A stretch of 64,000 nt of DNA from Halogeometricum limi. Its GTDB lineage: Archaea > Halobacteriota > Halobacteria > Halobacteriales > Haloferacaceae. The position numbers were made by a program, and so were the translations under genes. Below are positions 13,366 through 27,357 of this stretch, piece after piece (position 1 is the first letter of the stretch; the number at the start of each line of letters is the position of its first letter). Under the pieces are notes generated by a model. It was not told the origin of the DNA. It did no database searches and saw only the letters and a list, made by a program, of their open reading frames with translations. The DNA lies in assembly GCF_900115785.1 (NCBI RefSeq), contig NZ_FOYS01000001.1:875582-939581 (forward strand), written 5' to 3'.

Positions 13366-14463
13366 ATGGAGTACGTACAGGAGCGGGTGACGACGCTCCA
13401 CGACTTGGCCGACCCGGTTCCGGACGCCCCGACGGACCGGACGGCGGTTGTCGTCCCGATGACCGAACGCGAGTACGCGGGGCTGGCGGCCGACAGCGTC
13501 CTCTCGGAACTGGAGCGAATCGACCCCGCTCGGGTGGTCGTTCCGCTCCGCGCCCCCGCCGAACGGGTCGGCCCGTTTCGCGAGTGGCTCTCGGAGTACG
13601 ACCTCTCGCTCGACGTGCTGTGGTGCGACGGCCCGCGCGTCGCCGACGTGCTCGACGCCGAGGGACTGAACGGTGCGAGCGGGAAGGGCCGCGACGTGTG
13701 GTTGGCGCTCGGGTGCGCCGCGAGAGAGGAGTTCGTCGTCGTCCACGACGCCGACACGAAGACGTACGACCGGTCGTACGTCTCCCGTCTGCTCTTTCCG
13801 CTCGCGAACGGCTACCAGTTCTCGAAGGGCTACTACGCACGCGTCGAGGACAGACGGCTGTACGGCCGCCTGTTCCGCCTGTTCTACACGCCGTTGGTCC
13901 GGGCGCTCGCGGACGAGACGCCCGCCCCGATTCTGCAGTATCTCTCGGCGTTCCGCTACGCGCTGGCGGGCGAGTTCGCCGCGACGAGCGAGTTGGCGCG
14001 GTCGATTCGCGCGCCGCGGTCGTGGGGCCTCGAAGTCGGCGTCCTCGGCGACGCCTTCGACTTCGCGGGATTCGACGGGGCCGCACAGGTCGACCTGGGT
14101 GCGTACGAACACGACCACCGCGCCGTCTCCGGGCCGACCGGACTCTCGGACATGAGCGAGTCGGTCGGCGAGACGCTCTTGCGGACCGTCACCGACCACG
14201 GCGTTGCGCCCGACTTCGAGACGTTACCCGCCCGCTACCGCGACACCGCGCTCCGACTGGTCGACCAGTACGCCGCCGACGCGGCGTTCAACGGCTTCGA
14301 GTTCGACCGGGCGGGCGAACGCGAGCAAGTCGACGCCTATCTCGACGCCGTCGTCGAACCGACGGGCGCGGACGACAGACTCCCGGCGTGGTCCGACGCG
14401 CCCGTCTCGGCCGAGGAAGTCTGCGAGGCGGCCACCGCCGACGCCGAGGAGGTGTCGTCGTGA
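13366..14463 (+). CDS. Glycosyltransferase, glucosyl/mannosyl-3-phosphoglycerate synthase-like (GT2/GT81-like)
   Basis: VVVHDADT DxD-type motif; 365 aa. The reading frame was verified against the ORF track. Confidence 0.6.
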   Translation: MEYVQERVTTLHDLADPVPDAPTDRTAVVVPMTEREYAGLAADSVLSELERIDPARVVVPLRAPAERVGPFREWLSEYDLSLDVLWCDGPRVADVLDAEGLNGASGKGRDVWLALGCAAREEFVVVHDADTKTYDRSYVSRLLFPLANGYQFSKGYYARVEDRRLYGRLFRLFYTPLVRALADETPAPILQYLSAFRYALAGEFAATSELARSIRAPRSWGLEVGVLGDAFDFAGFDGAAQVDLGAYEHDHRAVSGPTGLSDMSESVGETLLRTVTDHGVAPDFETLPARYRDTALRLVDQYAADAAFNGFEFDRAGEREQVDAYLDAVVEPTGADDRLPAWSDAPVSAEEVCEAATADAEEVSS

Positions 14464-14954: not shown

Positions 14955-15042
14955 CACCGGTTCGGTTCGAGAGCGACTCTGCGGCACCCTCGGAGTTCGA
15001 CAGACGTGGCGTACTGACCACAGGAAACGCCGTCGGATTCAT

Positions 15043-15078
15043 CCCCGCGCTAAAGCACGGGGCTTTCTCCTTGATTTT
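15043..15078 (+). terminator. Candidate terminator: stem-loop CCCCG...CGGGG followed by a pyrimidine/T-rich tract (CTTTCTCCTTGATTTTCC)
   Basis: Lies about 90 nt downstream of the 14460-14954 gene. Archaeal terminators are oligo-T tracts, often after hairpins. Confidence 0.3.
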
Positions 15079-15310
15079 CCGGTAACCCCCGCTCGTTCGT
15101 TCCGGCTTCGAGTCGCTGAGTAGGTCGATAGACCGATGTGCCTGTGGCTCGCGGGCAGCGCTCGACGCGACGACTGATTCTCTCCTGTACCGCAGTCGGG
15201 GTCACGCTTCTGGATACGGTTCTCAAAGGCGCTTCGTGGCCCACAGTCATCGTCGCCCCCGATAGTGCACACGGAGTGATTTCGACGGGAGAAACGACGA
15301 ACCCGAGTAA

Positions 15311-15374
15311 TTAGACTAGTCTAAACATTATATTTGATAGAAGCTATTATATATTTCATCTAGTCATTGACTAG
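15311..15374 (+). promoter_or_regulatory. AT-rich promoter region. A perfect palindrome TTAGACTAGTCTAA (15311-15324) sits upstream of a TATA-like ATTATATAT, and a second palindrome CTAGTCAtTGACTAG (15360-15374) sits between the TATA and the ATG at 15381.
   Basis: Both palindromes share a GACTAG/CTAGTC core. Their positions correspond to activator (upstream of BRE/TATA) and repressor (TATA-to-TSS) operator locations in archaeal promoters. Confidence 0.45.
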
Positions 15375-15380
15375 CCGACG

Positions 15381-15632
15381 ATGGACGATACGACGCAGTC
15401 GAACTCGGAGCATCGATTCTCACGCAGAAGAGCGACTACTGCCGGTACAGAACTTGCCGTTTCTGGCATCGCCGGATGTACGGACAGCAGCGGCAGCACC
15501 GAAGTCGAACTCACGAGTGGCTCGACCAACGGGCGCACAACTGGAGACGGGCTTGTCGAGCGATTGTTCGGCGTGACGCAGGTCGAGGACCGTGCGCTCG
15601 GTCGCATCGGGGTGGTCGCCCATGGGGAGTGA
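15381..15632 (+). CDS. Small ORF (83 aa) with a Tat-like RRR motif and lipobox-like AGC. Possibly a secreted micro-protein or a remnant.
   Basis: Leaderless ATG about 27 nt after the TATA. It has lower GC3 than neighbouring genes and overlaps the DoxX start in another frame. Confidence 0.3.
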   Translation: MDDTTQSNSEHRFSRRRATTAGTELAVSGIAGCTDSSGSTEVELTSGSTNGRTTGDGLVERLFGVTQVEDRALGRIGVVAHGE

Positions 15633-16143
15633 AAAACCGAGCGTGTCTCGTCTGGTCGACGAGTCGGGAGCCGGACCCGGGAGACTAGCCACCGTTGCGC
15701 TGGTGGTTCTCCGTATTGGCCTCGGGTGGATTTTCTTCTATTCTGGGCTGACGAAAGTGCTCGACCCCGACTGGACCGCCTCGGGCTATCTGACCAACGC
15801 GGTGCCCGACGGAAACCCCTTCGCAGCCCTGTGGCCAGTGCTGGCGAACGTACCGCTCGTCGACGTGTTGGTTCAGTGGGGAATGGTGTTGACGGGTGTC
15901 GGGCTCATCGTCGGTGCGCTGGTTCGCTGGAACGCGTTCTGGGCTTCGTTCATGATGCTCACCTTCTGGGCGAGTAGCCTCCCGTTAGAGAACGGATTAC
16001 TCGTCGACAGCCACGTCATCTACATCATCGCTCTCACTGGTGTGGCGTCACTCGGCGTCGGTCGCGTCGCAGGCTTCGACGGGGTTATCGAATCGACGAG
16101 TCTCGTCAAACGCCACCCGCGACTACGCTATCTCCTCGGCTGA
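15622..16143 (+). CDS. DoxX-family membrane protein
   Basis: Four hydrophobic segments of DoxX-like topology (LRIGLGWIFFYSGLTK). Confidence 0.65.
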   Translation: MGSEKPSVSRLVDESGAGPGRLATVALVVLRIGLGWIFFYSGLTKVLDPDWTASGYLTNAVPDGNPFAALWPVLANVPLVDVLVQWGMVLTGVGLIVGALVRWNAFWASFMMLTFWASSLPLENGLLVDSHVIYIIALTGVASLGVGRVAGFDGVIESTSLVKRHPRLRYLLG

Positions 16144-16437
16144 CGTCTCTGAAAGCGAAACGCCGAACTTCACGAGAGAACCGCGCACCGTCTCGGTCCG
16201 AGTCGCCCCCAATACCGACCGGCCAGTGGCCGATACGCGACCTGTATTCGGCGCAGTCCGGACGAGCGATGGCGCACTGTGGACTCTCGAAAGAGCTGTT
16301 CGGTTCGGGTTACGTACTAGTCTCGACGGGGAATCGCGTCTGACTGGACCGGAGCCACCTGGGTCCCGTCCGCGGGCGGCGAGGTTCGCGGACGCCGCGA
16401 GAGCTAAGCCTAAGCCCCTCCGACAGTTCGAACCAGT

Positions 16438-24784: not shown

Positions 24785-24897
24785 CGAGCTTTTTGCAACG
24801 TTCGCGTGACGCAACGCGTCACGTGAGCCAGCGAGAACGCACTGCGTTCTCGCGAGAGAGGTGCGCCGAAGGCGCACCCGAGTCCGCAAAAAGCTCG
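24785..24897 (-). ncRNA. Candidate structured RNA or DNA element. A 12-bp closing stem (24785-24796 with 24886-24897) encloses three perfect hairpins (24803-24825, 24831-24853, 24859-24879), each with a 3-nt loop.
   Basis: All pairings are read directly from the sequence. The element starts immediately after the TRAM gene stop codon (TAA at 24898-24900 on the minus strand). Confidence 0.4.
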
Positions 24898-27060: not shown

Positions 27061-27357
27061 CTACGTGTTGAGGAAGTAGACTTGCTTCCGAGCGTCTTTG
27101 AAACTGTAGCGCGACCCGACGAGGTCCGCCTCTTCGAGTCGGTTGAGCGCGTAGCGTACGGTCCGGTCGGGAAGCAGCGAGTCCTCGGCGAGTTGTCCCT
27201 GTGACAACGGTGCGTCGCCCTCTAACACTTTGGCGACGAGTTTCGCACTGGGAGGGAGTTCGCGGAGTCGCTCGCGGAACTCGGTCTCCGAGAGGGGGTC
27301 CTCACGGTTCATCTCTGCGGTAGTGGTGCTCATACTCCACGAGAACGCGTAGTCCAT
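27061..27357 (-). CDS. Winged helix-turn-helix transcriptional regulator
   Basis: wHTH pattern SQGQLAEDSLLPDRTVRYALNRLEEADLV. The start may be the internal ATG at 27333. Confidence 0.6.
   Translation of the reverse strand: MDYAFSWSMSTTTAEMNREDPLSETEFRERLRELPPSAKLVAKVLEGDAPLSQGQLAEDSLLPDRTVRYALNRLEEADLVGSRYSFKDARKQVYFLNT

Follow-up and report, generated by a model that had tools for sequence, protein, structure and literature searches.

A probable metal-transporter promoter with a predicted SirR-type operator, upstream of a truncated gene and a DoxX gene in Halogeometricum limi

Introduction

Within the 64-kb stretch of Halogeometricum limi DNA analyzed here, referred to below as the window, an AT-rich island shows two palindromes on either side of a TATA-like sequence and upstream of an ATG at position 15381. 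This arrangement raises the question of which regulator, if any, recognizes the palindromes and which gene would be under its control. The original prediction, made from the letters of the window, was that both palindromes share a core and act as the activator site and the repressor site of a single dimeric regulator, possibly a wHTH protein encoded at 27061. Here, the island was compared with homologous haloarchaeal promoters, and the genes that surround it were analyzed.

Results

The palindromes and the AT-rich island

Both palindromes were found exactly as predicted: they are perfect, lie about 50 bp apart and stand on either side of the TATA-like TATTATATAT (15345-15354), with the ATG downstream. 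Palindrome 1, TTAGACTAGTCTAA, is a perfect palindrome of 14 bp at positions 15311-15324, and palindrome 2 is a perfect 7-1-7 palindrome (Table 1). The shared GACTAGTC core was not borne out: this octamer is present only in palindrome 1, and palindrome 2 has CTAGTC and GACTAG as separate arms, so that its half-sites face the opposite way about the dyad axis in relation to palindrome 1. The GC content is 36% in the 100 bp around the palindromes versus 68% in the whole window; the original prediction gave 70% for the genome. The tetranucleotide CTAG was seen 11 times in the window versus 69 expected, and three of these 11 sites are inside the 59 bp of the palindrome pair. Across the window, the observed/expected ratios were 0.22 for CTAG, 0.08 for GATC and 0.25 for AGCT, a strong depletion that would fit an avoidance of restriction or methylation in H. 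limi.

Two or more palindromes with arms of 7 or longer arose with P = 5e-5 in 20,000 shuffles of the 81 bp between 15300 and 15380, a test picked post hoc with the data already seen. Across the window, such palindromes show no excess (40 versus about 33 expected), and all the others are GC-rich. The window also shows a perfect 12+12 palindrome at 13760-13783 (AGACGTACGACCGGTCGTACGTCT), apparently within coding sequence, and a perfect 11-1-11 palindrome at 24831-24853 (GCGAGAACGCAcTGCGTTCTCGC).

Table 1. Features of the island and of the surrounding insert, with their positions in the window.
Feature	Position	Strand	Sequence or length	Description and evidence
Lineage-specific insert	14955..16437		1.48 kb	Flanked by the genes of DUF7109 (stop 14954) and NUDIX (start 16438)
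Sharply bounded element	15032..15087	minus	TTAC-CGGAAAATCAAGGAGAAAGCCCCGTGCTTTAGCGCGGGGATGAATCCGAC; about 53 nt	Full sequence GTCGGATTCATCCCCGCGCTAAAGCACGGGGCTTTCTCCTTGATTTTCCGGTAA
Promoter region	15279..15380	+		Homologous to promoters of ZnuA/MtsA-type metal ABC-transporter operons; blastn and alignments A1 and A2
Candidate SirR/MntR-type DtxR-family operator	15310..15325		ATTAGA-CTAG-TCTAAA	Contains palindrome 1; motif match and alignment
TTTGA (TTnGA)	15333..15337	+	TTTGA	Half-site-like; 22 bp past the first TTAGA; abuts BRE
BRE/TATA block	15338..15354	+	TAGAAGC-TATTATATAT	Consensus TAGAAAC-TACTATAT; highly conserved in A1 and A2
Palindrome 2	15360..15374		CTAGTCAtTGACTAG	Dyad specific to this genome; alignment and scan of fetched loci
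Start region	15371..15383	+	CTAGCCGACG-ATG	CTAGCCGACG-ATGGACGA invariant in the eight close homologues (A1)
ZnuA/MtsA-type binding-lipoprotein 5' fragment	15381..15551	+	57 codons	Tat signal SRRR, lipobox AGC, Ser/Gly/Thr linker
orf83	15381..15632	+	83 codons	Frame of the 5' fragment, open to the stop at 15632
DoxX-family membrane protein gene	15622..16143	+	173 aa	Intact; Pfam DoxX

Homologous promoters and operons

By blastn, positions 15279-15558 showed 74-78% DNA identity to the promoter and 5' end of metal ABC-transporter binding-protein genes, located on megaplasmids of Haladaptatus, Halocatena, Halomicrobium, Natribaculum, Natrinema and Halorubrum. The plasmid operons contain genes for a binding protein (ZnuA family), an ATPase and a permease, in this order, and most of them then carry a regulator gene. 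The regulator is assigned to the DtxR family because of its domains, Fe_dep_repress, Fe_dep_repr_C and FeoA; in NCBIfam it comes closest to a Mn-dependent MntR, with a score under the family cut-off. Three promoter sets were compared: alignment A1, with the window and seven close promoters; alignment A2, with the window and 12 close and distant promoters (13 sequences); and a set of 15 promoters, which adds to A2 the intact operon of H. limi (L065) and the chromosomal operon of Haloferax volcanii (L066).

Across 13-15 homologous promoters, both the BRE/TATA block and the ATG (15381) are kept, which supports the earlier claim of a genuine archaeal promoter. In the TTnGA motif adjacent to BRE, no change was seen across the 13 sequences of A2 at T53, T54 and G56, and A57 is nearly invariant; the motif is also present in L065 and L066. 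The L066 locus is that of HVO_2397, with a glutaredoxin gene (grx4) upstream and gcvP downstream, matching the published locus (PMC8155600), and its promoter shows TTTTAGACACATCAAAA, followed by TTAGAG, TCTATAT and the ATG. The operon HVO_2397-99 (mtsABC / znuA1C1B1) is described as a zinc transporter in one paper and as a Mn/Fe transporter in another. A single transcription start was mapped for HVO_2397, 4 nt upstream of its initiation codon (PMC8155600), and the box-to-ATG spacing is 54 nt in HVO_2397 versus 55 nt in the window. By analogy with this matching spacing and with a start 4 nt before the ATG, transcription in the window is predicted to start at about 15377, with a 5' UTR of about 4 nt. 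The conserved TATA (15345-15352) is located about 28 nt before this predicted start, the only mapped start being that of the H. volcanii orthologue. Of the leaderless ATG at 15381 with a start near 15378, as first proposed, what stands is a probably near-leaderless transcript; the predicted position, close to 15378, follows from the HVO_2397 analogy.

Upstream of the SirR-type box, the close homologues show an imperfect dyad, GAGATCTCsACrCGAGATAC, at the positions equivalent to 15283-15305, which is clearest in L053, L055 and L056. It is degenerate in the window (GATTTCGACGGGAGAAAC) and missing from distant homologues, and may serve as another regulatory site or as a terminator for an upstream gene.

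Palindrome 1 as a predicted SirR-type operator

The motif of SirR, an MntR-like regulator of the DtxR family, is TTTwGAnnnnTCwAAA in H. volcanii, in agreement with Leyn and Rodionov (2015) (Martinez-Pastor et al., PMC10783522), and SirR ChIP-seq peaks were reported at sirR, mntH and HVO_2397-99 (PMC10783522). Positions 15310-15325 of the window fit 11 of the 12 specified positions of this motif. The motif of the iron regulator TroR is TTTAGGC-NNN-CCTAAA, so that TTTAGG stands versus the TTTAGA of SirR at the discriminating base (PMC10783522). In A2, the inner arm base is of the SirR type (A/T) and not of the TroR type (G/C), with A15315 in 12 of the 13 sequences and T15320 in all 13.

Both arms of palindrome 1, TTAGA (15311-15315) and TCTAA (15320-15324), are invariant or nearly so in 13 promoters, and its outer 5+5 dyad is perfect in 11 of the 13 sequences of A2. 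Positions 15316-15319, at the centre, vary among CTAG, CGAA, TGAG, CGGT, TGTG, TTAA, TCAG, TACA and CAGG. Since these four central nucleotides are variable, the conserved feature is not the GACTAGTC core and corresponds to TTAGA-N4-TCTAA; judged from the alignment, the central CTAG, to which palindrome 1 owes its perfect 14-bp symmetry, is incidental. The most frequent centre is CTAG (five of 13 promoters, and two extra identical boxes), so the centre of the box may be under some constraint.

The exact pattern TTWGA-N4-TCWAA was found in 14 of the 15 promoters, which come from more than 10 genera, centred between -58.5 and -63.5 from the ATG. It matched 16 times in 195 kb, with 0.18 matches expected from block shuffles, and palindrome 1 is its only match in the 64-kb window, even with one mismatch permitted. 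The conservation of the arms at a fixed distance from the ATG makes it very likely that palindrome 1 is the site of a dimeric regulator, and this part of the original prediction is upheld. The traits of an operator seen here are a 16-bp dyad, an A/T inner arm base, a location in metal-uptake promoters and a DtxR-family gene in the same genome.

A second TTAGACTAGTCTAA box was observed at 7818-7831 of L060 (Halogeometricum borinquense pHBOR01) and at 8920-8933 of L052 (Halocatena marina plasmid), 135-176 nt downstream of the DtxR-family regulator gene. Past the box lie a TATA-like stretch and about 90 nt of non-coding sequence that is conserved (ATTGCGTTCCGA…AGTTCCTGCAACAC), shows no Rfam match and no convincing ORF, and may be a SirR-controlled small transcript.

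Palindrome 2 in homologous promoters

Palindrome 2 is located at about -17 to -3 from the predicted start. In the 12 homologous promoters of A2, between 0 and 5 of the seven pairs of its dyad are kept, with a median of 1. Its right arm (GACTAG) is common to the close homologues, as part of the conserved start region; the left arm CTAGTCA corresponds elsewhere to CCTATCA, CTAATCA, TCTATCT or CCCACCA. Among the 66 fetched loci, the CTAGTCNNNGACTAG pattern was found at the palindrome 2 locus alone. As far as sequence comparison goes, palindrome 2 is a lineage-specific sequence with no conserved role.

A second SirR-type box was also searched for by eye in palindrome 2 and in the interval between TATA and start, which gave no acceptable match.

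The truncated gene and the DoxX gene

The reading frame that starts at the ATG, orf83, was aligned by tblastn with five full-length binding proteins, and the alignments covered only residues 1-38 to 1-57, with 51-56% identity and E values of 7e-8 to 7e-12. No Pfam or NCBIfam match was found for orf83, where the full ZnuA domain (PF01297) is missing; the 64-kb window lacks the mature domain, as well as the genes for ATPase, permease and DtxR-family regulator. Because the homology is limited to residues 1-57 and the rest of the operon is missing, orf83 is considered a gene stub, and this same limit, together with the lack of a Pfam match, makes it a fragment and not a member of the family. A word-indexed protein search with orf83 matched orf83 itself alone; given the tblastn homology over 57 residues, this negative reflects the sensitivity limit of the search for a short, low-complexity signal-peptide stub.

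The ATG of the DoxX gene overlaps the end of orf83 by 11 nt, and the stub-DoxX arrangement was seen in no other genome. The DoxX protein aligns over its full length with homologues of 170-174 aa (56-66% identity). Its closest orthologues (56-66%; L045, L046, L047 and L048), found in Halomarina, Halegenticoccus and metagenome assemblies, each stand divergently to a module of three genes, which encode a FilR1-type wHTH regulator (HVO_A0261_N and FilR1_middle domains), a response regulator of the HalX type and a histidine kinase with HisKA_4TM. The intergenic regions of these four loci show palindromes of the GGAC-N2/3-GTCC type, such as CGGACgtGTCCG and GTCCGACTaAGTCGGAC, and the DoxX/FilR1/HalX module with these palindromes is a possible uncharacterised regulon. 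The window was searched for a FilR1-type regulator or a HalX remnant beside DoxX, and none was found; its region upstream of the gene shows no homology to the intergenic regions of the DoxX orthologues, where the palindromes are different.

The insert between the DUF7109 and NUDIX genes

The island and the DoxX gene are part of a mosaic insert, which contains an element of about 53 nt, the AT-rich island, the 83-codon ORF and the intact DoxX gene. In about 30 haloarchaeal genomes, the gap between the DUF7109 and NUDIX genes is 30-330 bp, and in all but one about 30-110 bp. The insert has a GC content of 0.55-0.65 and holds five of the 11 CTAG sites of the window. The usual short gap, the lower GC content and these five CTAG sites indicate that the insert is lineage-specific.

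Copies of the 15032-15087 element, with 85-100% identity and intergenic location, were found in 46 haloarchaeal plasmid records of more than 20 genera. In Haloferax gibbonsii pHGLR1, a copy is followed, about 92 nt downstream, by a TnpB gene. From this TnpB gene just downstream, the element is probably an IS200/IS605 (TnpB-type) left end with a subterminal hairpin, here as a solo remnant. The hairpin and TTAC are present, and an adjoining TnpB gene was seen in H. gibbonsii only; the 64-kb window contains no tnpB, and the element has no Rfam match.

Other origins and contents of the region were also considered. Between 14800 and 15700, no tRNA was found, and no non-coding RNA by Rfam at E <= 1. 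The repeats at the ends of the insert, whether inverted or direct, were at noise level, a 13-nt inverted repeat (14989/15398) being no better than others, and a phage origin of the insert obtained no blastn match.

Candidate regulators and the resident operon

The DoxX protein of the window is 99% identical to the H. limi protein at NCBI, and the source run, SRR4159465, encodes an exact match to a protein that NCBI assigns to H. limi, which places the window in H. limi or a nearly identical strain. The genome of H. limi also contains the intact operon L065 (SRR4159465 contig 129), with a DtxR-family gene (L065:4581-5306). This gene encodes a protein of 241 aa with the Fe_dep_repress, Fe_dep_repr_C and FeoA domains, which is a candidate trans regulator of the window promoter. 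The wHTH protein at 27061, put forward as a candidate regulator by the original prediction, is a generic protein of 98 aa encoded 11.7 kb away and was set aside, as the protein that accompanies this promoter elsewhere is of the DtxR family.

A recent copy of the resident operon was considered as the source of the window fragment and rejected, because the fragment shows no blastn similarity to L065 and is 74-78% identical to plasmid copies in other genera. Being closer to these plasmid copies, the fragment was probably acquired horizontally, in line with the IS-end remnant nearby.

Discussion

The AT-rich island is probably a metal-operon promoter, in which palindrome 1 is the predicted SirR-type operator, the gene behind it is a stub and palindrome 2 has no conserved role. 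In such a promoter, a DtxR-family dimer loaded with metal (Mn, Zn or Fe) would bind 15310-15325, about 60 nt upstream of the start, and may also contact the conserved TTTGA, two helical turns downstream and abutting BRE. When metal is plentiful, recruitment of TBP, TFB and RNA polymerase would be reduced, and the repression would lift when metal is scarce. The promoter, if still firing, would drive a stub-DoxX transcript by means of the 11-nt overlap, under the control in trans of a DtxR-family regulator encoded elsewhere in the genome. Repression is the mode that we infer, and it is not suggested by the position of the box, which lies upstream of the BRE/TATA block, where archaeal activator sites are more typical; published genetic work on regulators of this class indicates repression (PMC3600143).

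A single dimeric regulator that activates from palindrome 1, upstream of TATA, and represses from palindrome 2, between TATA and start, would account for two perfect palindromes about 50 bp apart which flank TATA, both loosely fit TAGWC-N2/3-GWCTA and include one in the classic archaeal repressor position. This pairing is very improbable, however, as the dyad of palindrome 2 is missing in 12 of 12 homologous promoters and unique among 66 loci, the conserved TTAGA-N4-TCTAA is unmatched by palindrome 2, and half-site orientation and spacing are unlike between the two palindromes; with an unconserved dyad and genetics that points to repression (PMC3600143), the joint activator and repressor sites are unsupported. 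Palindrome 2 could instead be a newly evolved operator of a different regulator, imposing a second, lineage-specific control on DoxX, since it is a perfect 7-1-7 dyad in repressor position, locally unlikely by chance, and derives from a non-palindromic ancestral sequence. We regard this as improbable: neither the window nor any fetched locus shows a second copy of the motif, no candidate regulator is found nearby, and about three substitutions from the ancestral CCCATCA-type arm suffice to produce the palindrome. That both palindromes are chance features of AT-rich DNA has almost no probability; the lack of a window-wide excess of such palindromes (40 versus about 33) agrees with it, but the positional conservation of palindrome 1 across more than 10 genera (14 of 15 promoters) refutes it for palindrome 1, and two such palindromes had P = 5e-5 in the local shuffles. 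Palindrome 2, considered by itself, could be of chance origin.

The metal-operon reading of the island leaves two views of its present state. The promoter may be an inert relic in an insert that is a junkyard of fragments, with DoxX silent or expressed from elsewhere. The transporter gene is cut off after 57 codons, its stub has no protein homologues in the word-indexed search, the insert is lineage-specific and mosaic, the usual partners of DoxX (the FilR1-type regulator and the HalX/histidine-kinase pair) are missing here, and no other genome has the stub-DoxX arrangement. Such decay is a real possibility but, in our view, rather unlikely, because the box, TTTGA, the BRE/TATA block, the start region and the ATG all depart little from the consensus, the stub is an open frame of 83 codons that overlaps the DoxX ATG by 11 nt, a typical coupled arrangement, and DoxX is complete, with conservation along the whole protein. 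The other view, which we offer tentatively, is a promoter capture, in which a horizontally acquired SirR-controlled promoter with a Tat-lipoprotein stub drives a DoxX gene parted from its usual partners, perhaps with the newly formed palindrome 2 as an additional, lineage-specific operator. If this were true, DoxX expression in H. limi would respond to the Mn/Zn supply, and a real stub-DoxX transcript would be a small natural case of regulatory rewiring in archaea.

The operator class, the target gene family and the promoter type were already published; the orphaned promoter fused to DoxX is an unusual fate for them. The comparison gives support to the SirR motif, which previously rested on three ChIP-seq sites and one bioinformatic study, with a footprint over 15 promoters where the box keeps a constant distance to the ATG and its four central nucleotides vary. 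It also indicates that a regulated promoter with a signal-peptide stub can travel between genomes and end upstream of an unrelated gene. For the reading of motifs it carries a caution, since what is unconserved is the palindromy that catches the eye, namely all of palindrome 2 and the CTAG centre of palindrome 1.

Among known systems, the SirR boxes of H. volcanii show the same 6-4-6 dyad and the same TTAGA discriminating base as the window, and HVO_2397 shares with it the gene family, the near-leaderless start and a TTwGA before the BRE/TATA block; the HVO_2397 protein shows 72% identity to the query, the binding protein of Halogeometricum borinquense. In contrast to H. volcanii, the window has a 57-codon stub upstream of DoxX, a CTAG centre and an extra, unconserved palindrome between TATA and start. 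The plasmid operons show 74-78% DNA identity to the window over the promoter and the first 170-280 nt, with identical BRE/TATA and CTAGCCGACG-ATGGACGA start region; TTAGACTAGTCTAA is identical in Haladaptatus and H. mukohataei, and also in Halobellus limi, which is more distant and outside the plasmid set. These operons are complete and have their own regulator, whereas both the transporter genes and the regulator are missing from the window. In bacterial and archaeal DtxR/MntR/TroR/MDR1 systems (e.g., the troABCDR operon), a cluster A-I ABC transporter is under the control of a metal-dependent repressor. The haloarchaeal system resembles them in its dimeric DtxR-family repressor, its AT-rich TTAG...CTAA dyad and its autoregulated operon of transporter and regulator; however, it differs in its archaeal BRE/TATA, in a box located upstream of BRE and not over the start, and in the half-site characteristic of haloarchaeal SirR.
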